From Candidatus Latescibacterota bacterium (GTDB taxonomy: Bacteria > Latescibacterota > UBA2968 > GCA-2709665): 64,000 nucleotides of DNA. The position numbers and the translations under genes are program-made. The stretch lies in assembly GCA_965203805.1 (NCBI GenBank), contig OZ241917.1, forward strand, positions 3,968,001 to 4,032,000, read 5' to 3'. Below the pieces are notes generated by a model. It searched no databases and was not told the DNA's origin. It saw only the letters and a list, made by a program, of their open reading frames with translations. This document shows positions 9,471-61,690 of this stretch, one piece after another (position 1 is the stretch's first letter; each line of letters starts with the position of its first letter).

Positions 9471-9503
9471 CCTGCCTGCGCAGCGTACTGCGCTGCAGGC
9501 AGG
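9471..9503. mobile_element. 33-bp palindromic micro-element CCTGCCTGC-loop-GCAGGCAGG
   Basis: Its reverse complement matches 36747-36779 at 32 of 33 nt. Removing it leaves the hairpin-like GGACGCCCACAAGGGGCGCCC. Confidence 0.7.
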
Positions 9504-9538
9504 CCCACAAGGGGCGCCCGGCTGGATGACGCGACGGG

Positions 9539-10312
9539 TCATGCCTGTTCCACCCTGGACTTGCGCCGGTACGTGCGCAGCTTCACATAGGCGGGACGGA
9601 TGATGAAACCCGTAATCGCCAGTGCCAGGACGGCGATGCTCAGCACGTCCACATAGATCCACTCACCCTCGGCGCCGAAGAGGGCTTTGCCGGTGTGCAG
9701 GTCCAGAACCAACTTGCTGAAGCTGACGACCTCGGGAAGGGGGACTTCCACCATGGTTGCGTTCACGGCCGTCAGCTCCGTCCACGTCGCGCCCAGGTCC
9801 GCGGTGACGAAGAGGCCGTTGCTGCCCTGTATGTGGACGATGCGACCATCTTCTGCAAAGGTTGCCGCTCCTCTGAAGTTGGAAATGCGCTTCCACTGCT
9901 CCGCCTCGAAGAGCCAGGTGCTTTCCCGCGTGCCGACCAGGATGCGCTCTCCCTGTTGGTCGATGTTGAAGATGTCCAGGCCCTCCAATTCCGGAACGCT
10001 GCGGTATTCGCTCCCACTCAGGTGAAGCAACCCTTTGCGCGTCCCGATGTACACCTCCTCATTGCCTGCAAGCAGGGCGCACTTGATCTGTCCCAGGCGA
10101 CTGGCGCTGGTCTGGTAGCCGGGAAACCACCGGCTGGGCACGCCCACGCTGCCCAGGCCCCAGCCGCTGAGATGCTCCAGCAGGATCGCGGTCACGCACA
10201 CGAGCACCGTGAAGACCAGTGCGAAGATGGAGGTCCAGGCATGCCAGCGGCGAACGCCTTTCTTGTAGCGTCCCTTCACTTGTCGGCGGCCCCGGGCCGT
10301 GCTCTCGTTCAT
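9539..10312 (-). CDS. PepSY-associated TM-helix protein
   Basis: RRWHAWTSIFALVFTVLVCVTAILLEH at the N-terminus and LDLHTG..YVDVLS..ITG at the C-terminus; GAGGAGG RBS; directly downstream of the TonB receptor. Confidence 0.85.
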   Translation of the reverse strand: MNESTARGRRQVKGRYKKGVRRWHAWTSIFALVFTVLVCVTAILLEHLSGWGLGSVGVPSRWFPGYQTSASRLGQIKCALLAGNEEVYIGTRKGLLHLSGSEYRSVPELEGLDIFNIDQQGERILVGTRESTWLFEAEQWKRISNFRGAATFAEDGRIVHIQGSNGLFVTADLGATWTELTAVNATMVEVPLPEVVSFSKLVLDLHTGKALFGAEGEWIYVDVLSIAVLALAITGFIIRPAYVKLRTYRRKSRVEQA

Positions 10313-10338
10313 CGCTTTTTCCTCCTCAAAGGACGCAT

Positions 10339-12645: not shown

Positions 12646-12679
12646 TTCTCTTCCTGTCGTGTGCGCAAATGCGCGTGTG

Positions 12680-15756: not shown

Positions 15757-15846
15757 GAGGATACCTCCTGACAGCGGCGGCCTGTCAGTCCGTTGAAAGA
15801 GTCCATCCGGTCTGCGTCCGGCCCTTGTGACCGAAATACGGCGTTG

Positions 15847-15879
15847 CCTTCCTGCGCCAGGCAACGCGCGGCAGGCAGG
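15847..15879. mobile_element. 33-bp palindromic micro-element, variant copy
   Basis: G|CCTTCCTGC-gccaggcaacgcgcg-GCAGGCAGG|C; same length, ends and G^C context as the 9471 and 36747 copies, different loop. Confidence 0.5.
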
Positions 15880-19288: not shown

Positions 19289-19289
19289 T

Positions 19290-19468
19290 TCATCCTGAGG
19301 AGGCCGCTTTGCCTGCCAGCGCATCATTGGCAGGCGGGCCGACGAAGGATCTACTGCGGCATGGGACCGTCCCCGCGCGAATTGCCGGTGTCGATACCTG
19401 AGAGGCGGCACGTCCGTCCATTCGTAGAACGGAAGTGACGGTTGATTCTTCGCTGCGCTCAGAAAGAC
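19290..19468. repeat. MITE/REP-like element, family B (TCATCCTGAG..GAAGGATCT / GATTCTTCGCTGCGCTCAGAATGAC ends)
   Basis: The right-end motif recurs at 32479-32504, 35373-35398 and 48461-48486; the left-end motif recurs near 32665 and 48541. Confidence 0.7.
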
Positions 19469-19602: not shown

Positions 19603-22600
19603 ATGGTACCAGTACTTGAATCTGCGCGCGTGAAATTTTGGCGTCCGGCCCTGTTTTCGGCCGTGATCATCGCCGCGTCCTGCCCCCTGGGGGGACTCGG
19701 CGCGGAAGTTCGTCAAACCGTGATATCGGCCTCCGGCAGGGGGCAAACCGCGTGGGCGGTCGGGCTGGAAACGGGTTCGTCCGCCATTACTGAGATCTGG
19801 GTCGAAACCCGTGGAAGCCAGCCTCGCCACCTCGGTACCTTTCCCGGCCCGCCAGGGCGACTGGAGTGGGTTGCGCACGGGGAACGTCTTCGCTTTCAGG
19901 AGACTGCCTTAAAGGTCCCCCTGCATACGCTTACCGTGCTCCCGAACAGGTCCTTGCCGCTGGTCGCATCGGGCGTCTGGGAGATCTCCGTTCTGGACGG
20001 ATCGATCGCGCGTTCGAAAACAGACTTCGAGGCGGAACCGGTAACGCCGCCGGTCGTGGCGACCCGAAACGCGCCGCGCCCGAGTCCGGCTGCCAAGGCC
20101 GTGCTGTGGGGCGTTGCGACGGCATTCAACGCCTCGGCCCTGGCCTACACCACCGTGCACCGCTGGGAATTCCGATCGGCGGTAAAGCGTTACCGGAAAG
20201 CCTCCCGGGCGTGGGCGGCCCTGCCTCCCAGATTTAAAAAGTACGGGCTCTACGAAGAGCCGGTGCTGTCCTACGCGGAGGCGCTGGCCGCAACCGCCAG
20301 GAAGGCCGGGGCAAGGCGCGGCGCCCGCTGGGTCTGCGAGGACCATCTGACCGTCATTGGCGACGCCCTCTCTGCATACGAGAAGGCTCATGAAGACCAG
20401 CGGCCGACCGACCTGGCGGCCCTAAAGGCGTGGATCGAAACCCATACGCTCACACCGGCGGACTCGACCGTTCTGAAGACGCTGTTTCGCTCGGCGAAAG
20501 ACCCTGAAAAAAGGCCGCCGGATCAGCTACACGCACGGATACCGCCCGGAAGCCGGGGACGGCGAAGCCGTTGTCACCAGTTTCTTCCACGACGGTTACC
20601 TGGTTGAAGCCGTCCGCAGCAGCACGGGATATCGCACCGTCGACCGGCGCGTGGGCAAGGCGCAGATCGACTCCCTCCTCTACCTCGGCACTGAACTCAC
20701 CCCGCATGAGCCGCTGCGGGCGATCTCCACCCTTGAAATCCTGGCCGGCGTGGCTCAGGATTACGCCCGCGGGCACAGCGGGCTCGGGTTCGCCTATCTG
20801 GAGGCGGAGAAGCTGGAGCGCGCCGTCAAATCCTTCGAACGCGCGATCGAATGCGACCACACGCTGGCCGAGGCCTACTTCGGCCTGGGTCTCACCTTCC
20901 GCAAATGGCCCAGGGGAAATTACGACGCCATCCGCTATTTCCAGAAAGCCCTCCAGTACGACCGGCACCACGTGGAAGCAAGGTTCAATATTGCCGATAT
21001 CCGGTACAAACTGGACGAACACGACGTACGGCGGGAAGTCAAAAAAGTACTGGCAATTGACCCCCGCTACGCGCCCGCCTATCTGCTGATGGGGAAATGG
21101 GTGGAGGAATTCGAGAAAAACTACGAGAAAGCCGCGCTCTACTATGCGAAGTATATGGGCTTGCGGCCCGGCGACCCGGAGGGGCGCAAGCGGCTGGGAT
21201 CAATCTACCTGAGAACGAAGGACTACGGCCGCATCCTGGAAGTCCTGGAGGATTACGCCATAGAGAATCCGGACGACGACCAGGTGCTGCCCATCCTGGC
21301 CCAGGCCTGCATGAAACTGGGGGCCTATGACAGGGCCGCCGCCTTCTTCAGAGACTTTCTCGAAGGGGCCGATGCGGCCGAGAAGGGGCACTACCACGAT
21401 ATCCGGCTGGTGGCGCCCAAGGAGACGCTGGCGGCCTTCGAACAGACGCCGCCGGAAGAACGATGGGACTTTGTGAGGAAGTTCTGGGCGGACCAGGACC
21501 CGGACCTGACCACGGCCGCCAACGAGCGCCTCCTGGAGCACTACCGGCGGGTGTCGTTCGCCATGCAGAATTTCTCCGAAGGCAGGCGGCCCTGGGACCA
21601 GCGCGGCGAAGTCTACATCCGCTTCGGTGAACCCGATCACCGCTCCACTTCCAAAGAGTTGAACTTCCAGCAATCCATGGCGGTTCAGCGGGTCAAGGAA
21701 CGCCTTTCCAGGACGCTCTACGGGGCTGCGCGCCCGCCGCGCCGTGGAATCGGCCTTCGCGGCGCCAGTTCAACGTTCGTCGGTCCGGTTTATCCCGTGC
21801 GCAGCCAGGGCGGCAGGGGTCCGGGGGGGTCCTACAGACCGGTCACGGCGACGTACGACGGCTCGATGGTCCCGTGGGAAACGTGGACGTACGTCGACGT
21901 GGGCAGCGGCATCGAGATTACCTTCACCGACGAGTTCAGCAACGGAAACTACAACTATGCGCCTGAACCGCTGGATGCCGGGATTCCCGCCCGCCGGCTG
22001 GCCATGTTTACCCGCTACAGCCCCCGCAATATCTACCGCATGGCCGCCGCGGCGCAGCCGAACTACTTCGTGCGGCCGAAAAACACGCTACCGATGGAAT
22101 TCTATTTCAACTCGGCTGACTTCAGGAGTGAAACGGATTTCCGGACCGCGCTGGAAGTCTACGTGGGGATACCGCGGCACCAGGGGCACTATATGATCGA
22201 TGACGACCGGACGGAAATATTGGTCGACCGGACCGTGGCGCTGCGAAATCCGGCAACCGGAGCGGTCTACCGCAGCGAGGACAAGGTACAATTCGCGGCC
22301 GAGGGGGACGTGACCGCGGAACGCAGCGCGTTCGTGCCGGACCTCGCGCGGCTGGACGTGCCCCCCGGGCGTTACAGGATGGAAGTGAAGATAAAGGATA
22401 ATCTGTCCGTTCAGCACGGGCGGTACCGTCAGGACATTGAAATCGAGTCCTATGAACGGCACAGCCTCCAGGTGAGCGACCTGGAACTGGCGTGGCGGAT
22501 ATCCAACCGCAAGGACGAGGATAAATTCAACAAAGGCACACTGTGGGTCATTCCGATGCCGACGCGGACCTACAGGGTAGGACAGAATGTATTCGTCTAC

Positions 22601-22909
22601 TACGAAATCTATAACCTGACGAAGGACGATTTCGGGCAGACGAACTACCAGGTATCCTATACCGTCACGAAGAAGGGCGGCTTCAGCCCCCTGGGTATCA
22701 TTAGCAGCCTTATAAGGTGGAAGAAGGGCAAGCGTGAAGAGCTGGAAGTGACGTACGAGATGGTGGGCGAGGATAACATGGAAGTCGAATACGTGGAACT
22801 CGAGCTGGAGAACCGCCCTGCGGGCAAGTATTTCCTGAACGTCACCGTCATCGATATGAATAGCGGTGAGTTGGCCCAGAAGCAGGCCAGTTTCATCCTC
22901 GCGCAGTAG
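19603..22909 (+). pseudogene. Large TPR + GWxTD protein (type II), split by a +1 frameshift near the A6 run at 20507-20512
   Basis: ORFs 19498-20607 and 20651-22909 align end to end with paralogue 23185-26922. Deleting one A gives DPEKGRRISYTHGYRPEAGDGEAVVTSFFHDG, which is collinear with the paralogue's SDYLYKHQGLPGAPALACFWHRG. This could be a sequencing error. Confidence 0.8.
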
Positions 22910-22990
22910 GATCAGGATTAGAGACCGAAAACAGGATCAGGATTTGCAGGATTAGAGGATTAAGCAGGATTAGAGAACAAAATCAGGATC
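22908..22990. repeat. Short AGGAT(T/C)-unit intergenic repeat
   Basis: aggatcaggattagag..caggatcaggatttgcaggattagaggattaagcaggattagag..caggatc. Confidence 0.55.
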
Positions 22991-23184
22991 GAAATCGAGC
23001 AGGAAAAGGCCAGGAGCAGGGCCGATGCTCACGATTCCGGTCCATAGAGATAAATCCGAATCCCTGCAGACCTCGCGTCGTCACTCCGGCTATTCAGATT
23101 CCGTGTTTCATTAACCTCAATTCGAAAAAAGAAACACGTTTTACGTTCGTGATCCGATTTGCCGACGCTTCGGGAGATTTCGTG

Positions 23185-26100
23185 ATGCATTGGATGAAGA
23201 TCCTACTCATAGGCGCGGGTGGCGCCCTGATCATGCCGGGAGAAGCCGCGTCGGCGTCTGGCGGGGTCCCCACCGCGAGTACGGCGGATGGCGGGCACGT
23301 CGCCTATGCTGTCCGGCGGGGCGACGGGTCGATTTCGATATCGGAAATATGGGTTGCCTCGCAACAGGACAACGGAGCCAGGAAGATCGCGGCCTATCCC
23401 GGAGAACCCGGCGGTCTCTGTTTCCATCCGGACGGAAGCGCGCTGATCTATCTCGAGCGAAGCCTGCGGCGGGAAGCGTGGGGGTCGTACTTCTACGGCG
23501 GGCAGTCGCTTCCGATAACGAGAAACAGAATCCGGAAGTTGAGTCTGGACGGCGCGAGACAGGAAACGTGGCCGCTCCCGGGCGACTTTCAACCCCTCGA
23601 ATTCGCGCCTTCTCCCGATGGACGGTCGTTGGCGATTGTCGGGTATCGGGGGAATCCGTTCGAGCGTACCGGCCACGGGCTTTGGGTCGCGGACGATCAC
23701 GGCGGCGTCAGGCCCCTGTTCGAGGGAAACGCCGCGGGCCCGTTGAACTGGTCGCCTGACGGGACGGCGGTATTTTTCCGCATGGCGGATGGCTCGGGAT
23801 CGATCCGTGTTGACATCGCCAGCGGAGAGAACTTTCGATCTGATCCGCCCAACCATATACCAAAAAGAGGTTATCCGGATCGCGAGGCCGTTTTCCGGCC
23901 GAATCCGGGTGCGGTTCCGGGTGGGGACGACGCGATCGATTCCGCCCTGGGGGTGATCGGCACCGGACTGGACCTGTTTATTCGCGGCAGAAATGCGCTC
24001 CACAGAGGAAACGAAGCCAGCGCGGAAAAACGGTTCCAGCAGGCCAGGAGTGCATTCAAGAAGCTCTTTGATCGGGCGCCGAAGTACGGGATGTCCAGGA
24101 AGGGCTGGGCAAGGTATATCGAAGTCTGCGAAGACTGGATCGATGCAGACAGCAACACGGCGCACAGACGCAACTGCCAGGAGCGCCTGGCGGGGATGCT
24201 CCGGTTGATGGTGGCGTTCGAGCGCGACCGGAACGGGGACGAACCGGAGGACCTTGCCGAATTGCATCAGTGGGCGACGCGGAAAATCGTTGCAGAGTCG
24301 CCGGCCGGAAAGGAACGGGATGACAGGAAGGCGATCCTTGGCGTGCTGTTCTCCTGTCCGTCAAACCGGAACTATACATTTCTCAGCGATTACCTGTATA
24401 AGCATCAAGGGTTGCCCGGCGCGCCGGCCCTGGCCTGTTTCTGGCACCGCGGCGAACAGGTCGCCGGCATGGCCGGACGCGATGGCGTTCACACGGAGAT
24501 TTCACGCATACCCGAAACACGGGTCGACAGCCTGGCATCCAGCGGGCGCCGCGCCATGGCCGCGAATGAGCTGGACCGGGCGCGCCTGATCTACCGGAAC
24601 GTCGCGCGTCAACGGCCGAGAGAACCGGACGCATATGTCCACCTGGGTCACATTCTCCTTGACTTGAAACGATTCGAGGAATCGAAAGACGCGTTTCACC
24701 GCGCCATGACCCTGGGTAGCAAAGCGCTTGCCCACCACGGCCTGGGAATGCTCTACGCCACGTGGCCGATGCAGCGCCATTTCGCGATTCACCACTTTAC
24801 AGAGGCGCTGGTCAGGGACCGGGACTTTGTGGACGCGCGATTTCGGATGGCCAAAGTCCGTTATGAGATGAAACAGCGTGACGCGGAGCTGGAGCTGAAA
24901 CGGGTCTTGAAGATGGACCCCGGCCACGCGGACGCTTATCTGATGATTGCAGACTACTATCTGAATCTGTCGTGGGAATTCGAAAAGGCCGTTGTCTGGT
25001 ATACGAAGTACCTCGCGCTTCGTCCGGAAGACGCCGACGCGCAGCGAAGGCTGGGGGTTGCATACCTGAAGGTCAGAGAGTATTCGAAGATTATGGACCA
25101 CCTGCTGGACTTCGTGAGAAAGTACCCCGAAGCCATCGAGTTGATGCCCATTGTCGCCGTTTCCGCCATGGAACAGGAAGAGCCGGCAATGGCAATGGCG
25201 TTCTTCGAAGACTACATTGACAAACTTGCGCCGGATGAAAGACGATTGTACGAAGATATATCGCTGGTTGCCTCCGGCGAGGAACTCAGGACGTGCAACG
25301 AGGCACTGGGCGCCCACCGTGAGACCTGTCTGCAGCGATTCTGGAATGGAAAGGACCCGGACCTGTCCACGGCCGTGAACGAGCGGCTGCTGGAACACTA
25401 CCGAAGGGTCTGGCACGCGCTGACGGAATTCTCGGAAGGCAGGCGCCCGTGGGACGCCAGGGGTGACGTCTACGTCCGATTCGGAGAACCCGATCACCGG
25501 TCCAGGTCGGACGAACCCAACTTCAAGCAGAGCCTGAAAGTACAGCGGGTCAAGGAGCGGCTCGCGTTCAATATCTACAAAGGCGATGTCCGCGCGCACA
25601 CGTTCGTCGGCCCTGTATATCCCGTTCGCAGCCTCAAACAGTTGGATGGCGCCTGGTATGAACTGAAAGAATTCACAATCGAGAACGCAGATCCATCGGC
25701 GTGTGAGATTGCCGGCATGACGAACGAAGGTACGGAGGCGGCCGACGCCGACCTTAATCAAGATGGAGGAAGCGAGTCTTTTTTCGTCAATGACGATTCC
25801 TTGAAGATCGGTATCCTGCCCCTTGACGAAAGCCTGGGATTCGGCGACTATCACCCGGTTACGACCGACGAAGATCGCAGCACCGTGCCCTGGGAGACCT
25901 GGATCTATACCGACGCCGGCGGCGGCATTGAAATCACTTTTACCGACGAAATTGGTTCCGGCGCGTACGATTACGCGCCCATGCCGCCGAACCAGGGAGA
26001 TATATCCATAGGCGAAACCGCTGCGCTGAGCAGGCACGCGCCCCATTCGGTCTACAGGCGTGCGGCTCGGGCCACACCCGATTTCTATGCACCGAAACAT

Positions 26101-26922
26101 GAGACGCCGCCCCTCGATTTCCACTACTCGCTGGCCGACTTCAAGGGCGAGGACGATAACAGCCTTCTCGAAATCTACTACGGCGTCCCCGTCGTCCCGG
26201 CGCATTACGTTGCGGCGGAGGATGTCACTCGGCAGGTCCTGACGCACCATGCGGCGCTCATTTCGTCGTCGCAGGATACCGTGTACAGGGAGACGGATGA
26301 AATGACCTACGAAGCCGCCGGAAACCGGGCCGAAGAAGGCCTGCTGGTACCGGACGTCCTGAAGGTGGACCTGCCGCCCGGCGCCTATCGTCTGGAGGTG
26401 AAGTCTCAGGACCGCCTGAGAGGAAAAATGGGCATCTATCAGCAGCAGGTTGTCGTGGAACCATATGGCGAAGATCGCCTTCAGATCAGCGACCTGGAGC
26501 TGGCCTGGCGGGTTGGCGCGGAAGATGCGGAGAGCAAGTTTACGAAGGGATCCCTGAACGTTGTCCCAATGCCGTCCCGAACGTACCGGAAGGGGCAGAG
26601 CGTGTTCGTCTACTACGAGATCTACAACCTGGAGAAAGACGAATTCGGACAGACCGGCTACAACGTCTCCTACACCTTTGCGTCGAAAGACACACCCGGG
26701 CAGGCGGGAAACATCTCACGCCTGTTCCGTTGGGGAACCGGCAAACGCGAGGAACTGGCGGTCACGTACGAACAGCAGGGTGAGGCCGCCCGCGAGAACG
26801 AATACGTCGAACTCGCACTGGATGAACAGGTCCCGGGGCGATATTCGCTGAAAGTGTCGATTAACGACAAGAACAGCGGCGAATCGGCGGAGAAAGAGGC
26901 GACGTTCGTCATCTCGCGATAG
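23185..26922 (+). CDS. Large secreted protein: TolB-like propeller segment + TPR + GWxTD domain (type II)
   Basis: Signal peptide, HPDG/SPDG repeats, many TPRs, FWNGKDPDLSTAVNERLLEHYRRV..RPWDARGDVYVRFGEPD, C-terminal ISDLELAW and VFVYYEIYNL. Confidence 0.88.
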   Translation: MHWMKILLIGAGGALIMPGEAASASGGVPTASTADGGHVAYAVRRGDGSISISEIWVASQQDNGARKIAAYPGEPGGLCFHPDGSALIYLERSLRREAWGSYFYGGQSLPITRNRIRKLSLDGARQETWPLPGDFQPLEFAPSPDGRSLAIVGYRGNPFERTGHGLWVADDHGGVRPLFEGNAAGPLNWSPDGTAVFFRMADGSGSIRVDIASGENFRSDPPNHIPKRGYPDREAVFRPNPGAVPGGDDAIDSALGVIGTGLDLFIRGRNALHRGNEASAEKRFQQARSAFKKLFDRAPKYGMSRKGWARYIEVCEDWIDADSNTAHRRNCQERLAGMLRLMVAFERDRNGDEPEDLAELHQWATRKIVAESPAGKERDDRKAILGVLFSCPSNRNYTFLSDYLYKHQGLPGAPALACFWHRGEQVAGMAGRDGVHTEISRIPETRVDSLASSGRRAMAANELDRARLIYRNVARQRPREPDAYVHLGHILLDLKRFEESKDAFHRAMTLGSKALAHHGLGMLYATWPMQRHFAIHHFTEALVRDRDFVDARFRMAKVRYEMKQRDAELELKRVLKMDPGHADAYLMIADYYLNLSWEFEKAVVWYTKYLALRPEDADAQRRLGVAYLKVREYSKIMDHLLDFVRKYPEAIELMPIVAVSAMEQEEPAMAMAFFEDYIDKLAPDERRLYEDISLVASGEELRTCNEALGAHRETCLQRFWNGKDPDLSTAVNERLLEHYRRVWHALTEFSEGRRPWDARGDVYVRFGEPDHRSRSDEPNFKQSLKVQRVKERLAFNIYKGDVRAHTFVGPVYPVRSLKQLDGAWYELKEFTIENADPSACEIAGMTNEGTEAADADLNQDGGSESFFVNDDSLKIGILPLDESLGFGDYHPVTTDEDRSTVPWETWIYTDAGGGIEITFTDEIGSGAYDYAPMPPNQGDISIGETAALSRHAPHSVYRRAARATPDFYAPKHETPPLDFHYSLADFKGEDDNSLLEIYYGVPVVPAHYVAAEDVTRQVLTHHAALISSSQDTVYRETDEMTYEAAGNRAEEGLLVPDVLKVDLPPGAYRLEVKSQDRLRGKMGIYQQQVVVEPYGEDRLQISDLELAWRVGAEDAESKFTKGSLNVVPMPSRTYRKGQSVFVYYEIYNLEKDEFGQTGYNVSYTFASKDTPGQAGNISRLFRWGTGKREELAVTYEQQGEAARENEYVELALDEQVPGRYSLKVSINDKNSGESAEKEATFVISR

Positions 26923-26950
26923 GTTCCGCGAAGCGAGGGAAGGACACCGA

Positions 26951-28033
26951 ATGTCCGGAAAAACGGGTTCCGCGCTGCTTGTTATCTCGTTCTTTATGGG
27001 CTGCGGCAATCCCGTGCCCACGTCTCCGGAAGCGACGAGCGATCTGCAGGGCTTTGACGTCGCCGGAAGAATGACGGAGCGGCGCTTCTGGCACGCGGCG
27101 GTCCTGTTGCAGGACGGCAAGGTACTCATCACGGGCGGCGCCGCAACGGACAGTCCGGGTAATGTCCCTTCGTCGCTGTTTCGCGCCAGCACGGAAGTTT
27201 TCGATCCTGTGACGGGAACTTCGAGCAGAAGGGGCGACATGTCCCGGGCTCGCGCACTCGACATGGGAATGCTGCTGCCGGACGGCCGTGTCCTGATCGC
27301 AGGCGCTGCTCAGGCCCCTCCGGAAATCTACGATCCGCAAACCGGTCGAGTCACACCCGAGCCGTATGAACCCGCCTTCGCGATCATCTCGTCGATGACG
27401 TTGCTCGCCAATGGTAAGATCCTCACCTATTACTCGCTGGGCGTCGCCACATTCGATCCCGCCACCGGGGGGTTCGCGGCGCTACCGGGTACGGTCCGCA
27501 TTCGAAGGGGCCACACGGCGACCCGGTTGCCGGACGGGCGCGTACTCATCGCCGGCGGCAGCAATGCCTCGGGTATGGTGAAGGAGTCCGAAATCTACGA
27601 CCCTTTGTCCAATACGCTTACGCGCACAGGCGACTTGAGATACGAACGTCGAGAACACAGAGCGATTCTTCTGGGGGACGGCAGCGTGTTGGTCATTGGC
27701 GGGACCACCGACGACGAGGGATCTGAAGTGTCGGTTACGGCCGCCGAGCGGTACGATCCTGCAACGGGGATGTTTTCATCGGAAGGGGATCCGGGACTCG
27801 AGCTGATTCACGCGGCCGCGTTACTGCGATCGGGCGACGTGTTTATCATTGGAGAAAGCGGCGAGGTCATTCTCTACGATCCCGCTACCGGCGCGTTCGG
27901 CCCGACCGGAGACAGCATCGGCGAGAATCGCGCGTTTTACACGACAACGCTGCTTCCCGACGGCCGCGTGCTGATTGCCGGCGGATTGAAGGACTTCGAG
28001 GCCACGGATCAGGTTCTGATTTACAGACCCTAG
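26951..28033 (+). CDS. Kelch-repeat beta-propeller lipoprotein
   Basis: Lipobox FMG-C, Kelch units; collinear with 8368-9456 (GF(D/E)xxGRMTxxRFWH ... VLxYxP); 28 bp after the GWxTD gene. Confidence 0.88.
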   Translation: MSGKTGSALLVISFFMGCGNPVPTSPEATSDLQGFDVAGRMTERRFWHAAVLLQDGKVLITGGAATDSPGNVPSSLFRASTEVFDPVTGTSSRRGDMSRARALDMGMLLPDGRVLIAGAAQAPPEIYDPQTGRVTPEPYEPAFAIISSMTLLANGKILTYYSLGVATFDPATGGFAALPGTVRIRRGHTATRLPDGRVLIAGGSNASGMVKESEIYDPLSNTLTRTGDLRYERREHRAILLGDGSVLVIGGTTDDEGSEVSVTAAERYDPATGMFSSEGDPGLELIHAAALLRSGDVFIIGESGEVILYDPATGAFGPTGDSIGENRAFYTTTLLPDGRVLIAGGLKDFEATDQVLIYRP

Positions 28034-28045
28034 CGTCGAAAACCG

Positions 28046-28206
28046 GTGAGACGCAAGACGGTAGATGACATCCTCGCCCGATTGGCTCTACCCTTATGCC
28101 TCCGGCGCAAATTGAAGCCGGACGCGGCGGACAATCTCTCCCCTCTTACATCTCCCCGTTCTTCAGGCACTCATCTCCCGTCTCCCCTCTACCCTCTCAC
28201 CGCTTT
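28046..28206. repeat. Dispersed repeat family C (GTGAGACGCAAGACGGTAGATGACATCC / TCTCCCGTCT..CTCTCACCGC)
   Basis: About 90 bp recur inverted near 48770-48861; related units occur at 44187-44405 and 48108-48245. Confidence 0.65.
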
Positions 28207-28664
28207 TGAGGGGCCGGGGGGAGAGGTCTGCGCCCCCTCTGGTAATGCCACATCCAGGCGCTGAAGTCGACAGACTCGGTTATCGGTTAAAGCTGAAGGC
28301 CGATTGCGAACGGCAGTCCTCATCACTAAGGTGTCAATCGGTCTCACAAATGATATCCTGACCGGAGGACTCCCAGAGCAGAGCGCGCGGTTCCGTCCAG
28401 CTACTCAGATCGATTTTCTACTGTGGCTGTCAGGGCAGAAAAGTGTGTGTATCCTGTGAGTGGATTCGCGCTGTGCCTGTGGCAGGCCCCGCGCCCAGCG
28501 GCGACTTTTGGTTCCTTTTGGTCGCTTCAAAAGGAACCCGCCGGAGGCAGGGAATTTGGGGAAAAGGGGATTTTGAATCTGATTCTGGATTTTTGATTCA
28601 AGCCAAATGCTGACGTGAACGGATTGGGTTCTTGATTCGAGCTCGCTGTCCCCAGAGTTGATCG

Positions 28665-30257
28665 ATGGCATATACACGACATGCCCCGATAGCCATTCCG
28701 TTAAGTATCTGTCTCTGCACTTTTTTTCCTATTGCCTTCGGGTGGATTGTCGGCCCTGTGGCGTCTGAAGGGAAACCCCCGGCCGTCCCGTTCGACGGGC
28801 CGACAAGCACTGATTGGTACGCAGTTTTCGTAAAGTGGGATCAAGCGTACGGGGACAATTATCTGGACGGACGCGACGGGGGATCGTTCGCCTGGGGTCC
28901 TTCGGCCTACGTACAGAGGATGTACCTGAATCTCTTTCGGGCATTCAATGAGAGGGTCTGGCTGGACAAGCTGGCAGGGCAGATCGACCGCATTCTGGCG
29001 TCCGGGTCGGACGTGCCGCCGTACGAAGTCTACGATCCTCGATACGCGGACGGTTACCGGGGCTGGGGACAGAACCGCTACCGCCAGTACAAGCCCGAAT
29101 ATACCGAATGGCTCTCTGACGACGGGTTGATCGTCAGCCCCATCCTGGCATTCGTGGAGCTCGTCCGGGACGATCCGTACCTGCACGCGGCCTATAAGGC
29201 CAAAGCGGATGACTACCTCCGCATTGTCGAAGCGGACGTGATCGCGAAATGGTACGCCAACTGGGCGCCGGATCGCGGGTGGACGAAAGAGGACAGCAGC
29301 CGCTACCGCGAAGACGCGGGATACCACGTGTACGAATGGTCCGGATGGAAACGCCAGCCGCTGAATATGTACCTGTCGTTTACGGATGCGCTGATAACGC
29401 TCCGTCGACTTTCAGAATCGCCTTATTACAAACCTTACAAGGAGGCGTTTGTACCGTTCTACGCTGAACAGAGCGAGCAGATGATGCGGCACTTTCGCCG
29501 CCAACTGTCGTACGATACGGAAACCGACGCCTATACGTGGAAATACGGTCCTGAAAGCCACTGGCCCGACATGATGGAGGACGTCGGGCATGCCTTTATC
29601 GACATTCAGGCGGCGCTTCAGGGGGTGCAAAGCGGGCTGAGTTTCACCCGGACAGATCTTGCGAGAATGGCCAATACGTTTGTACGCCGTGTCTGGAACG
29701 GAAGCCTGGACGAGCCGGCATTCAAATATTACATCGGCGGCCCACCGGATAAGCTCGACGCGGAACGCGGATTCAGGGGGTGGGGCTTTCTCTACCTGGC
29801 CGGGTACGACTACCGGATCTGGGAATCGATGGCCGCGTACTTCGAAGAGCAGGTTTCAATGCACGGCGCACCGTCGCATATTGCGGCAACGGCCGCGATG
29901 CTTGCCATATCCGCGCAGGCGCACGACCGATGGGCCCCCGGCGCTCCACTTCACGTCGAAATCATTCGTAGCGGACAGGACATGCGGATTTCGTGGCGCC
30001 GTCCGGAAGCCGACGCCGACGGCACCGCGCTTACCGGACTGCAAGGATATTTCGTGTACCGGGCATCGGGGCCGGAAGGACCCTTCGACGCTCTGAACGA
30101 GGTTCCCCTGGCCGCAACGCAATACGTGGATCGCGGCGCGTTATCCGGACCTTATTTCTATCGGATCACCGCCGTGGACTACCGGCGCCCTTCGAACGAG
30201 GGTCCGCCGTCCGAGGTCGTGACGACGTCGAACAGTCGTCCCTGTCCAGGGCCCTGA
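28665..30257 (+). CDS. Putative secreted protein: helical domain + C-terminal fibronectin type III domain
   Basis: Hydrophobic N-terminus; FN3 pattern PGAP..ISW..LQGYFVYRA..QYVD..YFYRITAVD..NEGPPS. Confidence 0.7.
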   Translation: MAYTRHAPIAIPLSICLCTFFPIAFGWIVGPVASEGKPPAVPFDGPTSTDWYAVFVKWDQAYGDNYLDGRDGGSFAWGPSAYVQRMYLNLFRAFNERVWLDKLAGQIDRILASGSDVPPYEVYDPRYADGYRGWGQNRYRQYKPEYTEWLSDDGLIVSPILAFVELVRDDPYLHAAYKAKADDYLRIVEADVIAKWYANWAPDRGWTKEDSSRYREDAGYHVYEWSGWKRQPLNMYLSFTDALITLRRLSESPYYKPYKEAFVPFYAEQSEQMMRHFRRQLSYDTETDAYTWKYGPESHWPDMMEDVGHAFIDIQAALQGVQSGLSFTRTDLARMANTFVRRVWNGSLDEPAFKYYIGGPPDKLDAERGFRGWGFLYLAGYDYRIWESMAAYFEEQVSMHGAPSHIAATAAMLAISAQAHDRWAPGAPLHVEIIRSGQDMRISWRRPEADADGTALTGLQGYFVYRASGPEGPFDALNEVPLAATQYVDRGALSGPYFYRITAVDYRRPSNEGPPSEVVTTSNSRPCPGP

Positions 30258-30515
30258 AACCCGTCTGCGAAACTGGCGGTCGGTCCGGGCGGGGGCCGCC
30301 GCCGACAACGATTGCGAGATCGATAAATTATCTTATATTTGCATATTCATTTCCTGTTTCGGCAATATTAATTGTGATTTCGGATAAACTCACATCGCGA
30401 ACAGCCAGTTTGCGGCACGGAAAATTCAACTCGCGGTTTACGGTTTCCAGGCTATTTGAGAAGAAACCAGCATACCTACCGTCACGGTTCGACAGCCTTC
30501 GGAGGGAGCAAGGAA

Positions 30516-31172
30516 ATGGAAAAGCGGGTGTCACCGGTGTTGAAAATGGTTCGCCACACCGTACCGGATGAGGACTTCAAGGACAAATCGGATGGGTATT
30601 CCTCAGACTATGGCGTGTCACGGTCCTTGACCGCGCTGCGTTGTTCTCACGATGTCACGCAGGCTGAACTTGCGGAACGGGCGGGCTGCACGCAGAGCAA
30701 GATCTCGAGAATCGAGAACAGCCCGAACGATCGGCTTAAATTGGAAGCCCTGGCGATGTACGCACGCGCTTTCAACATGCGAGTCTCCTTTGACTTCGAG
30801 CGGGAATTGCCCGCGGCGGACGCCATCGGAGGCCTGGCGCGCCAGATCCGGACCAGCCTCGACGACGTGGACGAGACGACCCGGAACGACGGGGCCGCCG
30901 AGCGGGGTGCGGAACGGACTTACGAAGAATTCCTGTTCCAAATGCTGGACCTGTTTATGGAGAAGCTGGAGGCGCTCCGGTCGCGCCGCAACGGATCCGC
31001 GGAATCAGGGGTGGCGACGAGGGCGGAAAACGGAAGGCCGAACGATACGTTAGCTCGGAGCGAAACGCCAAGCCGTGAAAGACGGCAGAACGGCACTGCA
31101 GGAATCAGGATATGCACGCCAATCGACGCAAGCGAAAAGAACGGCAGGACCGAATCCCAACCCGAGCAGTGA
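30516..31172 (+). CDS. XRE-family HTH protein
   Basis: LTALRCSHDVTQAELAERAGCTQSKISRIEN; GGAG/AAGGA RBS. Confidence 0.82.
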   Translation: MEKRVSPVLKMVRHTVPDEDFKDKSDGYSSDYGVSRSLTALRCSHDVTQAELAERAGCTQSKISRIENSPNDRLKLEALAMYARAFNMRVSFDFERELPAADAIGGLARQIRTSLDDVDETTRNDGAAERGAERTYEEFLFQMLDLFMEKLEALRSRRNGSAESGVATRAENGRPNDTLARSETPSRERRQNGTAGIRICTPIDASEKNGRTESQPEQ

Positions 31173-31188
31173 AGAAGCCGGTTTGAAG

Positions 31189-31212
31189 GTGGGGCGGACA
31201 TTCCTGTCTGCC
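31189..31212 (+). repeat. REP family A: GTGGGGC(G/A)GACATTCCTGTCTGCC hairpin
   Basis: Further copies at 34009-34032, 35253-35276, 35478-35501 and 48341-48364, and an interrupted copy at 36741-36793; all in the same orientation. Confidence 0.85.
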
Positions 31213-31273
31213 CGCTTCGCCAGGCGCCTCTCGTAGAAGACTCACGGAAAGACAGTAGAAATGGAGGAAGAAG

Positions 31274-32395
31274 ATGACAGCCCGAATCGCAATAGCATTG
31301 TTGGGGATCTCAAGCTTCTGGGCTTGCGGGAGCGACTCGGTGACGGCACCGGAGCCGCCGGCCCATGAAAGGGGTCTCCACGAGGTTGGCGCGATGACCC
31401 GGCCGCGCTTTGAGCACGCAGCGACGTTATTACAAAGTGGAAAGGTCCTGATCGCCGGGGGCAACGCGGAAATACCTCCTTCTGAACCTGGAGTACCTTT
31501 CAGGTCCAGCGGTCTTGTCAGCGCGGAGATCTTCGATCCTGAAACCGGGGTCTCAACACCAACGGGAGACCTGACCGCAAGTCGATGGGACGACCACGGC
31601 ATATTGCTTCCCGAAGGACGGGTCCTGATGATATCCAGATTTCTTAGACTCCCCATTGAGATGTACGACCCCCACTCCGGTAGATTCGATTCCGCAGCAA
31701 ACGCGCCGTGGTCAAATGGAACGAGTACTGCCACGCTGTTGCCCAACGGAGAGGTCCTTTTAATCGGAGGGTCATCCGCGGGTCGCGCACGTGTCCTCGA
31801 TCCCGCTTCAGGCACACTTTCCGACACATTCAGGATGGACCATCCCGGATATGGCCATACGGCCACTTTGCTGAAGGACGGCCGCGTGCTGATCGTTGGA
31901 GGAGCCCGCAGGGGAGTCGAGTTGACGGGACGGAATCTGATCTACGATCCCTCATCCGAAGCCTTTTCAAGAGCAGGCGACCTGCAGTTCGACCGCGCGC
32001 ACCACAAGGCGGTGCTCCTTCAGGACGGCAGGGTGCTGATCGTCGGCGGCCACGTCGGAGACGGGCCTCGCGTACAGACGGCCGAGATCTACGATCCCGA
32101 AACAGACACCTTCTCGCCCGCCGGAACTTCCGCAGTGCATCCGTTGGCCGCCCTGCTGCTGCCGTCCGGCAGGGTATTTTTCATTCATTCAGACAACGGT
32201 AATATCTCCCTTTATAATCCGGATACTCAAGTATTTTCGCCGCCTACAGGGTATAGTCTAGGTCCGTGGCGAAACGGGGCGACGGTAACGCTCCTCGATG
32301 ACGGCCGCGTGCTTATCGCCGGCGGATTGAAGACGGCGGATGACAGTCATTCTCATGAGTCGATTTCGGATAAGATTTTCATCTTCACGCCCTGA
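31274..32395 (+). CDS. Kelch-repeat lipoprotein, array copy 1
   Basis: FWA-C-GSDSVTAPE; Kelch units; ends IFIFTP. Confidence 0.9.
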   Translation: MTARIAIALLGISSFWACGSDSVTAPEPPAHERGLHEVGAMTRPRFEHAATLLQSGKVLIAGGNAEIPPSEPGVPFRSSGLVSAEIFDPETGVSTPTGDLTASRWDDHGILLPEGRVLMISRFLRLPIEMYDPHSGRFDSAANAPWSNGTSTATLLPNGEVLLIGGSSAGRARVLDPASGTLSDTFRMDHPGYGHTATLLKDGRVLIVGGARRGVELTGRNLIYDPSSEAFSRAGDLQFDRAHHKAVLLQDGRVLIVGGHVGDGPRVQTAEIYDPETDTFSPAGTSAVHPLAALLLPSGRVFFIHSDNGNISLYNPDTQVFSPPTGYSLGPWRNGATVTLLDDGRVLIAGGLKTADDSHSHESISDKIFIFTP

Positions 32396-33962: not shown

Positions 33963-34093
33963 GACACACAGGAGTCACTACTGCCAATAGAAAGAAGCCG
34001 GTTTGAAGGTGGGGCGGACATTCCTGTCTGCCGCTATGCCAGCCCTGTCGGGTAGATGTCGCACCCTCAGTCCCTCGACGTGGAGTTTAGAAG

Positions 34094-36746: not shown

Positions 36747-36779
36747 CCTGCCTGCAGCGCAGTTCGCTGCGCAGGCAGG
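36747..36779. mobile_element. 33-bp palindromic micro-element inserted in a REP-A copy
   Basis: GAAGGTGGGG|CCTGCCTGCAGCGCAGTTCGCTGCGCAGGCAGG|CGGACATTCCTGTC; the empty site GAAGGTGGGGCGGACATTCCTGTC is present at 31185 and 34005. Confidence 0.8.
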
Positions 36780-41151: not shown

Positions 41152-41252
41152 GCGAGGGAACAAAGAGACGAGAGAACGAGACGACGAAGGGACGAGGGAG
41201 CGAAGGGACGAGAGAACGAGAAGACGAAGGATCGAGGGGACGAGAGAACGAG
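41152..41252 (+). repeat. Degenerate purine-rich 8-mer tandem repeat (ACGAG/ACGAA core)
   Basis: About a dozen units such as acgagaga, acgagacg, acgaaggg and acgaggga fill the intergenic gap. Confidence 0.7.
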
Positions 41253-41260
41253 GAGCTTCG

Positions 41261-42259
41261 ATGCCGGGAGGCCCCATAAAGGTCGCGCTGGCCGGTTGCG
41301 GCGGATTGGGCCGGGCCCACGCCAGAAACGTGGAAGCGCTGGAAGGTGCGCACCTTGTCGCCGTCTGCGACGTCGTATCGGAATCCGCCGCGCAGCTTGC
41401 CGCGCAACTTCCTTCCGGCCCGACGCCTTACGCGGACCACCGCGCCATGCTGGCCGCCGAGAGACCGGACGCCGTGCTGGTGGTTACGCCCAATCACACG
41501 CACAGCCGCATCAGTACGGATGCCGCGCTGGCGGGCGCCCACGTCTTCTGCGAAAAGCCGATGGCGCTGACCGTTGAAGACTGCGAAGCGATGATACGCG
41601 CAGCGCAACAGTCAGACGTATTTCTCATGATAGGCTATGTTCGCCGGTTTCAGGCCGCGTATCAGGAGCTCAAGCGCAGGGTGGACCGGGGAGACGCGGG
41701 GGAAATCACCCTCGCGCATGCGGTGCGTATGGGAACCGGCGCGCCGGGCGGTGTGGGAGGATGGCAGACCCGAAAGGGAACGTACGGCGGTATGTTTTCC
41801 ATGTACAGCCACGAACTCGACCAGCTCGCCTGGCTGGCCGGTGAAATCCGCGCCGTAAATGCCGTCATGAAGTACGGAGATGACCCGGAAAACGAAGTCG
41901 AAGAAAGCATCTTTATCGGCATTGAGTTCGCATCGGGCGCGGTCGGCTCCTTAAGCAGCAGCCGCGTCTACCCGGTCAACAGCTACGAACTCGGCGTGGC
42001 CGGAACGGCCGGCGCGCTCAAGCTCAACGACGCGGGCGGCCCTGTCCTGTTCGCCCGGCACGGCGACAGATCCACGGCCATAGAGGCGCCCCGGAACAAC
42101 GGCCTGATGGACGAAATCGCTCATTTTGTCGGATGTATTCAAAGGGGCGAAGCGCCCCGGTCGGACGGCAGGGATGGAAGGCGCGTTGTCGCGGTTGCCG
42201 CCGCAGCTCACGAATCCGCCAGGACCGGCAAGCGGGTCGAGGTTCCGATGATGACGTGA
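41261..42259 (+). CDS. Gfo/Idh/MocA-family oxidoreductase
   Basis: GCGGLG, VVTPNHTH, HVFCEKP, SHELD. Confidence 0.93.
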   Translation: MPGGPIKVALAGCGGLGRAHARNVEALEGAHLVAVCDVVSESAAQLAAQLPSGPTPYADHRAMLAAERPDAVLVVTPNHTHSRISTDAALAGAHVFCEKPMALTVEDCEAMIRAAQQSDVFLMIGYVRRFQAAYQELKRRVDRGDAGEITLAHAVRMGTGAPGGVGGWQTRKGTYGGMFSMYSHELDQLAWLAGEIRAVNAVMKYGDDPENEVEESIFIGIEFASGAVGSLSSSRVYPVNSYELGVAGTAGALKLNDAGGPVLFARHGDRSTAIEAPRNNGLMDEIAHFVGCIQRGEAPRSDGRDGRRVVAVAAAAHESARTGKRVEVPMMT

Positions 42260-46779: not shown

Positions 46780-46889
46780 ACGATACCGAGAATCAAGTGG
46801 GGACTTGTCTGCAGCGGCAGGCTGGCAGGGAGAACACCGGTTGGGACCGGCATCTGCCCGTCGCTGACACTTTACGAGGAATTCCGGAG

Positions 46890-48104: not shown

Positions 48105-48962
48105 TTAAAGGCGGTGAGACGTGAGAAGGTAGACGGGAGATTACAACACCGCGATCCCCGGTCAGCGGTATGGCCACGCGATATCAATTCGTGGAGTTGC
48201 GACCTCACTTAAAGGCGGTGAGACGTGAGTGGGTAGACGGGAGATTATTCGCTCCGCGCAGAATAATATGGGTTGCAATAGTGATTAGCGAGATGTTTCG
48301 GTCATGCCTGCGCCAACACTGTGACGACGCCGTCTTGAGGGTGGGGCGGACATTCCTGTCTGCCGCCACGATGTCATGCTGAGGCGGCGCGAGGGAAACC
48401 ATGCCTCCGCGCATACGGGCCGGTGAAGTCTTCCGCTGCACGTCGAGCGGAGAAGACGGGAGATTCTTCGCTGCGCTCAGAATGACACGTTTAGCGATAA
48501 CCATTGAGGAAGTGTATCAATCACACCGTCGCCCAAAACTGTCATCCTGAGGAAGCCGCCCTGCCTGCCAGCGGTTTATTGGCATGCAGGCTGACGAAGG
48601 ATCTACTGCGGCATCGCTTGATACCCGAGCGTCATTTGTCATTCGCCGCGACCTGACAGGCGGCACGTATGCACGCACACGGTCAGGCTGAGGCGGCCGC
48701 CAGGGAAACCAGGCCTCTGCGCATATGGGCCGGTGAAGTCTTCCGTTGCTCGTCAAACCGAGACGTGAGCGATTGTCTGCACTGTGCGGTTTCATTTCTT
48801 GCCAGAGGCACAAAGGAAGAACCAATTGGGCAAGGATGTCATCTACCGTCTTGCGTCTCACGTCTCCCCGGTTTTATTGCCCTGTGAGGTCTCAATTCCG
48901 GCCGGAGGCATTGAGAAAGAGCATATCGGGCAAGGATTTCCTCTACCGTCTCCCCTCTCTTC
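48105..48962. repeat. Cluster of REP/MITE-like repeats (families A, B, C and an ~80-bp direct repeat)
   Basis: REP-A at 48341, family B at 48461 and 48541, family C at 48108, 48210 and 48770; direct repeat 48373-48452 vs 48682-48762. Confidence 0.75.
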
Positions 48963-59591: not shown

Positions 59592-59596
59592 TCGAC

Positions 59597-59959
59597 GTGC
59601 GATTTGTTGTTGACGCGGATCTTCCGCGATCTGTTTCTCAAGTGATTGCCGAGTACGGTCACGAAGCAGTGGATGTGCGTGATATTGGCATGATGAGCGC
59701 GAGCGATGACGAGATCGTCCAATACGCACGCAATGAGAGACTTTGCTTGTTGAGTGCCGATCTTGGGTTTGCCGACGTTCGCCGCTATCTTCCGTCGAAG
59801 TATCACGGCATCGTGGTCATGCGATTGCCTCGGCACGCGACGTCGTCATTCATTGAGCGCCTTTTATCTTCTTTCCTTGGTCAATTGGATACCTTCCCTG
59901 AACTTCGTGGGAAGTTAGCGATTGTAGATTCGGGGCGAGTACGGATTCGCGCCAGATAA
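59597..59959 (+). CDS. DUF5615 / VapC45-like PIN-domain toxin
   Basis: MRFVVDADLP, GHEAVDV, SDDEI..A, SADLGF, GIVVMR; follows the DUF433 gene. Confidence 0.88.
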   Translation: MRFVVDADLPRSVSQVIAEYGHEAVDVRDIGMMSASDDEIVQYARNERLCLLSADLGFADVRRYLPSKYHGIVVMRLPRHATSSFIERLLSSFLGQLDTFPELRGKLAIVDSGRVRIRAR

Positions 59960-60307
59960 GTCCATTCAAGCGATGTTCCTCGCCTACCTCAATTGCAAAC
60001 CCATGTTAAGCTGCTTACGCACATTGGATCTCGGAAACTTGATATTGGTGCGAAAAAATGGCGAAAACATCTATCCTGACTAATTCATGAAACTGGTCGG
60101 GACAGTGTTTTTGTAAGTAGAAAGTGTTCTGTAGAAGGGAAAGCATTAGAATGAGGTGTTGCTGACGCGATGATGAGTGATTTTTGGTGTGTCGGCAGCA
60201 TCGAGGGTTGTCGAGTTTGATAAGTTGTGGTTGGCAAGGACACACGGCTGCCTTGGTCTTACCTGTTGGCTATGGGAAAGGGATGGCGGGGCCTGCGTGA
60301 AACGGCG

Positions 60308-61690
60308 TTATGGAACTGCCTTTGCCAAATTGCATAGGATGGTGCCATAGAGGTGTTTCAAGGGAAATGAGGTTGGCAAATGGAGTTTGATTTTGGTTTT
60401 GAGTTCGGACACTCTTCCTGCGACTTTGAGGATGCGATTCTGAATGGTATTAAACTGCGCGTGCGTCCATTGTGTGGCGCGGAGTCCTTTTTCGGTAAGG
60501 GTCTGCATCAAGACATAAGCGGCACTATGCAGTAAGAGACGGAAGTGATTGGCTTGGAAGGTGTGGCAGGAGGTACGATCGGAATGGAGGAAGGTTTTGT
60601 GATTCTTGATGAAGTTTTCCATCCTGCCTGCCTGGCCGGCAGACAGGCCGCGCGTACAATAGACGTTTTTGTAGATGTATGAGGGCTGGCTACTTTTCAG
60701 GTTGGTGACGACAAAGCGTGTATTGGCTTGTCCGGACGCGGTGATTTCAGCTTTGTAGATGATGCGTCTTGGCAGGGCCCAGGTATCTGCCTGGTAAGCG
60801 AAACTGGTAAATAACTGCACGGGCTGACGGGTTTCCCGATACCGGGCCTTTGCCTGCTCGATCAACGCGTGTCCTCGTTGCGCAAGCCTGGCATTGCCCG
60901 TTTGTCCCAGCACGAAATACACCTCTTGCGCGTCGCAAAAGTCGTGGACCTCAGGACAGGAAAAGTGGCCATCGCCACGCAGAATGATACGCACGTCCGG
61001 CCATGCCTCACGAAGCATTTTCACCAGGCGCTTGAGAATGCTGACAATCTGTCTGCCGGACGCACGGGCACCCGGACGCAGCAGCGTCGTGATCAGTCTT
61101 CCTGTCTGGCCTTCATAAATGTGCAAGGGGCAGTAACAGCGTTCACCATAATAGCCATTGAACATCGCCAACTGTTGACAGCCGTGAACCTCGTCATCGG
61201 TGTCATCGATATCCAGAACAACCCCTTTGGGAGACCCATCGTAGGACGCGATAAATCCGTCCACAAGCGCCTCGGCAATACGATATAAGTCCCTGCGACG
61301 AATGCCGTTTTCCAATCGACTCATCGTGGGTTGGCTGGCCAACGGCGCCCCGGATATCGGCAACCGATCACAGGCCGCCTTGAACGCGGGGTCAAAGCGC
61401 AACAAATCGCAATCGTTCGCATCCTCATACGCGCACGCGATCTGAAACACACGCTGGCTGATCAGATCCGACATCGTATGATCCACATAACTGGGATGCC
61501 GACGGTCCGGTAACGCCTCGACGATACGAGACAGAATGCCGATCCTGGACTCCACCTCGCGAAGCAGCATCGACCCCATATCGCTGGTGAGCACACCGCC
61601 ATCGAAAACCGCTTCCACCTGCTTGCCAGAAACACTTGCGAAAGGAACTGACAGTTGACTATCTTGAGCTTCCACGGTAGTTTCCTCCAA
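60308..61690 (-). CDS. IS1380-family DDE transposase carrying a 7-aa in-frame insertion
   Basis: FDGGVLTSD, AYEDAND, LASQPTMSRLEN, LDIDDT, LRPG, RGDGHF, YCTRG[LSAGQAG]RMENFIK, ANHFRL. Confidence 0.95.
   Translation of the reverse strand: MEETTVEAQDSQLSVPFASVSGKQVEAVFDGGVLTSDMGSMLLREVESRIGILSRIVEALPDRRHPSYVDHTMSDLISQRVFQIACAYEDANDCDLLRFDPAFKAACDRLPISGAPLASQPTMSRLENGIRRRDLYRIAEALVDGFIASYDGSPKGVVLDIDDTDDEVHGCQQLAMFNGYYGERCYCPLHIYEGQTGRLITTLLRPGARASGRQIVSILKRLVKMLREAWPDVRIILRGDGHFSCPEVHDFCDAQEVYFVLGQTGNARLAQRGHALIEQAKARYRETRQPVQLFTSFAYQADTWALPRRIIYKAEITASGQANTRFVVTNLKSSQPSYIYKNVYCTRGLSAGQAGRMENFIKNHKTFLHSDRTSCHTFQANHFRLLLHSAAYVLMQTLTEKGLRATQWTHAQFNTIQNRILKVAGRVSELKTKIKLHLPTSFPLKHLYGTILCNLAKAVP
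60627..60647. mobile_element. 21-bp palindromic micro-element inside the transposase gene
   Basis: G|CCTGCCTG-gccgg-CAGACAGG|C; adds LSAGQAG to the protein. Confidence 0.75.

Follow-up and report, generated by a model that had tools for sequence, protein, structure and literature searches.

A family of 19- to 36-base palindromic elements inserted precisely at purine–pyrimidine steps in a Latescibacterota genome

Results

The 64,000-nucleotide stretch analyzed here (the window; positions 3,968,001 to 4,032,000 of contig OZ241917.1, that is, G000:C1:3968001-4032000) belongs to a Candidatus Latescibacterota bacterium whose genome (G000) is a single contig of 5.87 Mb with 59% GC. It contains copies of a tiny palindromic element, in which an initial annotation had seen a non-autonomous mobile element that nests in other sequences and whose empty sites can be reconstructed. 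The results below support this view: the family is real and mobile, as evidenced by precise insertion, nesting, and presence or absence between close strains. Three of the copies listed in the annotation (9471-9503, 36747-36779, and 60627-60647) matched the strict pattern, for which no match was expected (100 shuffles); a fourth (15847-15879) is present but was missed by that pattern, as it carries one arm mismatch (at 15850). The 33-base copy at 9471..9503 (+ strand) lies in the spacer that separates a Kelch-repeat gene from a PepSY-TM gene and is missing in a close strain. The 33-base copy at 15847..15879 (+ strand) lies within a multi-copy intergenic repeat, and that at 36747..36779 (− strand) lies inside a copy of REP-A (REP, repetitive extragenic palindrome); the latter is, in opposite orientation, identical to the 9471 copy at 32 of 33 positions, exactly as annotated. 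The 21-base copy at 60627..60647 (+ strand) adds seven in-frame residues to a transposase of the IS1380 family (RG^RM; IS, insertion sequence), whose host element (60072..61779, − strand; open reading frame [ORF] 60308-61690, DDE_Tnp_1_4) is a target and not a mover.

When the whole genome was searched by iterative removal of the innermost copies, three rounds gave 232, 30, and 5 elements, that is, 267 elements in 90 sequence variants, a count which retains a few single-copy long variants that are probably chance matches. The reversed-pattern control yielded only one match versus 232. Thirty-five of the 267 elements were revealed only once inner copies had been removed; other elements, REP-like repeats, and IS genes all serve as hosts. 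Lengths are not limited to 21 or 33 bp, as first thought, but range from 19 to 36 bases, the main classes being 33 (104 elements), 31 (51), 30 (31), 27 (17), 36 (14), 19 (12), 37 (10), and 21 (9). If the element is read as a 4-base tag plus a unit with inverted ends of 5 bp (see below), the 31- and 37-base classes may be 27-base elements plus host or deletion remnants.

Blunt removal of the element yielded an exact empty allele (a 22-base sequence present elsewhere in the genome) for 96 of the 267 elements, whereas any other junction model with a non-zero score accounted for just one to seven. The proposed empty sites could likewise be confirmed. The exact empty form of the 15847 site (15 + 15 bases) was found 11 times in the genome and that of the 36747 site (10 + 10 bases) six times; the window holds five intact REP-A copies (an empty one at 31186..31212, + strand, and further ones at 34006, 35250, 35475, and 48338) and the whole genome 39; and the RG^RM codons are uninterrupted in four of the eight full-length IS1380 copies. 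Of these paralogues, four carry no insert, the window copy carries one, and the others two or four. In one of them (G000:C1:1368430-1370072), ∼115 bases between two inserts are lost and one hybrid element is left, from which it follows that element arms can bound deletions. A 1.3-kb DDE_Tnp_1 element is present in five copies (e.g., C1:2630960-2632278), none of them empty: three inserts, of which one causes a frameshift, are shared by all five. This broken IS has, therefore, apparently spread after its inactivation.

The 9471 copy has no exact empty counterpart in its own genome (8 + 8 bases). Polymorphism between strains, which had been suggested as a check, was found at this very site: a contig of sequencing run X4 (2508 bases) lacks precisely these 33 bases and otherwise differs from the window at 19 positions in an alignment of ∼1790 bases (∼99% identity). 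Run X4 stems from a study other than that of the best holders, and the listed pieces of three other runs did not span 9471. Skips of 33 bases at 15845-15879 (runs X4, X6, and X8) have short sides and may derive from other copies of the host repeat; they were left uncounted. Copy number in fourteen congeners ranged from 0 to 268, and genomes 92–96% identical to the window at a neighboring gene contained 0, 2, 22, and 268 copies. G001 is rich in copies, as is G000; G009 and G014 are close to zero. For the 36747 copy, the entire region differs in the five congeners compared. Contigs of runs X6 and X8 join the repeat-rich spot near 19416 directly to 9525; a 9.9-kb block (TonB receptor, cobW, ZnuA, and ABC genes) is arranged otherwise there.

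That the family might be immobile, consisting of terminators, of REPs, or of the termini of an IS already described, would agree with its hairpin shape and mostly intergenic location. The exact empty alleles, the IS1380 paralogues, the strain polymorphism, and the nesting refute this notion, which we give next to no chance. Furthermore, genic copies occur in both orientations, orientation is not biased relative to transcription (9 sense, 11 antisense), the window had no match in Rfam, and arms as paired termini were absent from the inspected ends of 28 multi-copy long repeats, each representing one cluster (single-copy IS lie outside this set).

The junction is G^C for 153 of the 267 elements. 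With C as the first and G as the last base of the element, a duplication can be written for these sites, and the flanks had indeed been read as a GGC/GCC target duplication. However, empty alleles were also recovered by blunt removal where duplication is impossible, namely, for 7 of 19 G^T, 3 of 9 A^C, and 4 of 8 A^T sites. Target duplication of one to four bases is, thus, ruled out; insertion is blunt, without target duplication, at a purine^pyrimidine (R^Y) step. The same data bear on conservative recombination over a 2-base GC core (IS110/bridge-like, or by a tyrosine recombinase), in which the supposed duplication would be the core. The frequent G^C junctions, writable as a GC duplication, and the single IS110-family gene of G000 are consistent with such a route, but targets of the A^T, A^C, and G^T type keep both bases and show hybrid junctions, a 2-base stagger would be expected to leave whole cores, and core and flank did not covary in 37 site classes (p = 0.07 and 0.43). 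This route is, thus, largely refuted and very unlikely. Target choice through complementarity to the element core was discarded for want of a signal in the same 37 classes.

Orientation could be assigned via internal asymmetry for 131 of the 166 copies of 27–36 bases. In the resulting 37 independent site classes of this genome, position −1 was G in 81% and position +1 a pyrimidine in 100%. Sites of the 24–36-base forms in other genomes (n = 88) had a purine at −1 in 87% and a pyrimidine at +1 in 81%, whereas at 64 foreign sites of the 20-base form, the purine was kept (87%) but not the pyrimidine (51%). The commonest foreign junction was A^T (26 of 130 matches). The target preference, therefore, comprises approximately two bases, and there is no fixed 4- to 5-base target 5′ of the insertion as in IS200/IS605. 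A preference for strongly folded targets was not borne out: differences in folding strength were small (means of −10.1 versus −8.3 kcal/mol in intergenic repeats, n = 40), and the insertion site was not enriched there for the paired state.

Every family consists of two 8-base arms and a variable core; longer cores comprise, by inspection, mostly a 2-base bulge and an inner stem. With positions 5 and −5 left free, positions 9 and −5 form a Watson–Crick pair in 206 of 224 copies. T9 occurs together with A−5 in 49 copies (15 variants), where a plain palindrome would result in a mismatch and a wobble, and this form recurs in foreign genomes with many cores, matches to a pattern that demanded it being left out of account; the pair is broken in six copies of one variant, to which the 60627 copy belongs. 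The covariation of position 9 with position −5 suggests that the element is composed of a 4-base 5′ tag (CCTG in all catalogued families) and a unit whose inverted ends measure 5 bp. In three 27-base families confirmed through empty alleles, only the 5-base right end is present, which lends this reading weak support.

Of the 231 outermost copies, 200 reside in repeated DNA, which amounts to 5.2% of the excised genome; when each independent site class is counted once, the figure is 55 of 76. Per Mb, there are 976 copies in intergenic repeats, 19 in unique non-coding DNA (which is overestimated, as the gene finder covers 76% of the genome), and 1.6 in unique genes. This location may reflect targeting of repeats as well as survival and hitch-hiking. 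Predicted genes contain 43 of the outermost copies, the other 188 lie outside. Thirty of the 43 are in transposase-family genes with Pfam support and five more in IS-like genes without it (paralogues were assigned through an identical flanking peptide). Of the remaining eight, which include copies in IMS, Polysacc_synt, IGPS, and ADH genes, seven are multiples of three; two are close to predicted starts, and three are probably chance matches. All 13 frameshifting copies of 19 or 20 bases within predicted genes of this genome are in IS genes, which indicates selection rather than design.

In-frame insertion that adds peptides to proteins, as deduced from the first copies, is thus supported. Frame preservation is, however, no rule of the family (183 of the 267 elements are multiples of three, and in other genomes, a length of 20 bases accounts for 78 of the 130 matches); it is best read as a selective filter and not as an intrinsic property. 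Both the surviving locations and the multiples of three in host genes are likely the outcome of purifying selection and of copies hitch-hiking with REP-like repeats and IS elements. In-frame copies within open frames were also found on the viral contigs L294 and L295. The inserts at 60627 of the window and at 1309613, 1663562, and 4551729 of G000 are within a few codons of motifs that we take to resemble the catalytic DDE residues, a proximity that may be due to chance.

As to the looser relatives listed in the annotation, those at 19308..19338 (− strand; ends uncertain, 27 or 31 bases) and 48560..48590 (− strand) stood as old, degenerate copies in one and the same family of REP-like host repeats. 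Sixteen of the 17 copies found of this repeat are filled with a diverged version, and one (at ∼32667 of the window) has a short spacer; 19308 and 48560 probably go back to a single old insertion that was multiplied along with its host. The third, 46804-46825, does not belong to the family: the G001 ortholog contains its left half, and its right half forms part of an unrelated 42-base indel. The indel segment (46820-46861), which has an inner hairpin, is missing from that ortholog and occurs once in G000. The window further contains paralogous clusters of TPR/GWxTD-domain and Kelch-repeat genes (721-9456 and 20651-36686) with several REP-like repeat families between them, and an intergenic purine-rich tandem repeat with an 8-base period (41153-41264). 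DNA of the window was detected in sponge, coral, and marine metagenomes.

Outside this genome, a scan of GTDB gave at least 120 loci (record titles were available for 80 of them), with the scans of metagenome and viral contigs, which also carry copies, being lower bounds as well. Among the listed GTDB matches are Patescibacteria, Bacteroidota (including cultured Flavobacteriaceae), Omnitrophota, Planctomycetota, Lentisphaeria, Desulfobacterota, Nitrospirota, Ignavibacteria, and Latescibacterota, although some long single matches are likely due to chance. One perfect palindrome accounts for 46 of the 78 matches of 20 bases, and a near-identical 33-base form occurs at locus L046. Of 35 foreign carriers, 33 gave BLAST matches to a stretch with the 20-base form, and the candidates numbered up to 77; a cultured carrier, Gaetbulibacter aestuarii JCM 17455, has at least 26 candidate places, Winogradskyella and Aquimarina strains are further cultured carriers, and carrier genomes can be as small as 0.6 Mb. 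At seven loci (L001, L012, L044, L050, L051, L084, and L095), copies are located in sequence resembling a tRNA, often next to a complete tRNA gene; at L012, two tRNA-like fragments alternate with two GIY-YIG ORFs of 97 residues.

No mover was present among the 32 ORFs scanned in the window, in agreement with the prediction that it is not encoded nearby. At 68 foreign loci (133 ORFs), no neighbor gene was recurrent; neighbors were mostly housekeeping genes, with GIY-YIG in three cases, and no HUH motif was observed in the ORFs of the foreign loci retrieved. GIY-YIG proteins were rejected because their presence does not track copy number across genomes. Also rejected on this ground was a putative Rep_trans-like IS transposase, present in 8 of 33 genomes and not found in G007, G011, G013, G016, and G024; close relatives of this 523-residue protein number approximately ten each in G001 and G008, and the single copy in G000 (C1:2954924-2956528) contains a 33-base element in frame. 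Y2_Tnp had no match in G000, but its control matched nowhere either, rendering the result uninformative. An autonomous partner, with unpaired arms or within long repeats, was absent from the output examined. Y1_Tnp matched in 27 of 41 relatives, irrespective of copy number, and Y1-family proteins in 27 of the 35 foreign carriers, a tally without a matched non-carrier control.

An RNA-mediated route, by which a small structured RNA would be reverse-transcribed and then inserted, could account for the stable hairpin and for the foreign copies in tRNA-like sequence, and G000 does encode one reverse transcriptase. RVT_1 was, however, rejected as a mover, as it does not track copy number and had no match in seven high-copy carriers searched (G007, G015, G024, G043, G046, G049, and G063). 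As the insertions are also unbiased relative to transcription, this route has only a slim chance.

RAYT-like (RAYT, REP-associated tyrosine transposase) Y1 genes were encountered with repeats of their own. At L408, L411, and L412 (Patescibacteria), such genes are flanked on both sides by one short palindrome, a third copy of which lies inside the frame, an arrangement that PMC6006769 describes for subclass 2.4. G000 contains two RAYT-like modules with their own repeats (C1:4533749-4534117 and 4547970-4548200) within a cluster of large genes, one of them inside an open frame of 1252 residues; similarly long frames are present in G008, G011, and G016.

Discussion

A single-strand nick-and-join enzyme is favored as the mover of this family because blunt hybrid junctions, dependence on a hairpin, and a two-base target are the output of HUH chemistry (PMC6006769; PMC8266576). 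We propose that an enzyme of the HUH/Y1 type, acting in trans, mobilizes the hairpins of 19–36 bases, which insert whole and bluntly at R^Y, in single-stranded form; belief and doubt are evenly balanced here, as neither a strand bias nor a partner was found. The 5-bp stem, preceded by the 4-base 5′ tag, would enclose the variable hairpin. Upon joining of the ends, the tag would become a 4-base loop closing the stem, resulting in a dumbbell-shaped minicircle, which the enzyme would cleave at its G^C junction before sealing it into an R^Y step. Alternatively, the tag may serve as a guide, by analogy with the tetranucleotide of REPs. Single-stranded circles are used by IS200/605 elements, as stated in PMC6006769, and cleavage of REPs is, according to PMC8266576, guided by the 5′ tetranucleotide and requires the bulge. 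The occurrence of the Y1 family in 27 of the 35 foreign carriers is also in line with the proposal.

Several observations weigh against this proposal. No cognate enzyme was found among the candidates examined, and no circle was observed in the data, which consist of contigs only. Y1 genes do not follow copy number among the 41 relatives: G007 has 135 copies and no match, whereas G017 and G038 have 32 and 75 matches but only two copies and one copy, respectively. Eight of the 35 foreign carriers (incomplete genomes) are without a Y1 match, including G043 with ∼25 copies. In none of 20 Y1-hit loci in carriers, a small sample, was the element present on both sides of the gene. Five closely inspected Y1 loci have flanking repeats, but these are other palindromes; at the two Y1 loci of G000, the repeats are likewise others, and the element is inserted into them. 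Bias for one strand of the replichores was not discernible (60 of 131; singletons 9 of 15), with the GC skew being noisy and copies hitch-hiking. Also, the T9/A−5 covariation could reflect a single inherited event. In two of the three asymmetric 27-base families, the same four host bases follow the element (the third is one base off a full arm), so that slippage could explain them through the loss of a 4-base unit from symmetric copies.

The hairpins could instead be inserted by host replication, repair, or topoisomerase activity, or by a wholly new class of enzyme, with no transposase dedicated to them, for example, through capture of a hairpin oligonucleotide at single-stranded gaps. This is possible, if on the whole rather unlikely. 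That no candidate mobile enzyme tracks copy number, that foreign copies are mostly beside housekeeping genes, that genomes of 0.6 Mb are among the carriers, and that a strand bias was not seen all agree with a host activity. However, the range of 0–268 copies within one genus fits a patchily distributed trans-acting gene better than a universal function, and the constancy of ends and target rule across phyla implies specific recognition.

The elements might even be the smallest mobile DNAs known, forming a class shared between phyla: closed single-stranded dumbbells of 19–36 bases which enter almost any R^Y step without a scar, by an enzyme class or host activity not linked to transposition before. 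This we consider doubtful. How repeats shorter than 40 bases spread is an old question, be it for small dispersed repeats (SDRs), REPs, or Rickettsia palindromic elements (RPEs). Exact ends, a two-base target rule, a covarying pair, strain polymorphism, and cultured carriers make it directly testable. An enzyme that pastes a 20- to 30-base hairpin with a free core scarlessly would represent a new editing chemistry. For the hosts, the elements disrupt or lengthen transposase genes, contribute peptides to proteins, and can delimit deletions.

A description of this family was not encountered in the literature searched, in which supplements were outside the scope and subscription journals mostly missing. 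Elhai et al. are said to have reported in 2008 (Genome Res 18:1484) that SDR1-8 of Nostocaceae are structured repeats of 21–27 bases, located within other repeats and within themselves and apparently mobile, with no mover named, and reportedly restricted to a cyanobacterial subgroup. By this definition, and likened by description only, the present family is similar in being structured, nested, precisely inserted, and ∼20–30 bases long; unlike the SDRs, it spans many phyla and viral contigs. A size of ∼20 bp and possible mobility of SDRs are mentioned in PMC2884548.

The "double-foot" REPs of TnpA-Y1 subclass 2.4 likewise have a 5′ tetranucleotide and its 3′ reverse complement around a hairpin and insert into genes in frame (Quentin et al, 2018; PMC6006769). 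Their foot is, as given there, GT[AG]G and their repeats flank their own tnpA, whereas the tag is CCTG here, the element can be as short as 19 bases, and a Y1 gene with the element on either side was not encountered at 20 Y1-hit loci. Tagged, bulged hairpins of 20–40 bases with high copy number, some inside ORFs, are a feature shared with REP/REPIN-RAYT systems, as described in PMC3733652, PMC8266576, and PMC3116915. The family also resembles these in being mostly extragenic, but it lacks their GTAG/GTGG or CGTC tag and, at 20 Y1-hit loci, a repeat-flanked Y1 gene; it moves as one discrete unit whose ends are exact, and it takes REP-like repeats as targets. The main text of PMC3733652 does not contain the string CCTG. 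With IS200/IS605, the family has in common the absence of target duplication, the recognition of a hairpin, and a short target rule, but it is far smaller, shows no discernible counterpart of their lagging-strand orientation bias, and no autonomous partner was found. IS91 and Helitron are HUH transposons without target duplication, too, and the A^T target of Helitron is also an R^Y step. Unlike a miniature inverted-repeat element of a DDE transposon, the family causes no target-site duplication and has no ends in common with an autonomous IS among the 28 long-repeat clusters. Unlike an intrinsic terminator, it is not oriented with transcription and is also located inside genes. RPEs exceed 100 bases, which is several-fold longer, and are restricted to their genus. 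They are, as mentioned in PMC3733652, likewise palindromic in-frame inserts that add peptides. The family, then, works like the cyanobacterial SDRs, as these are reported to behave, and is built like a double-foot REP.

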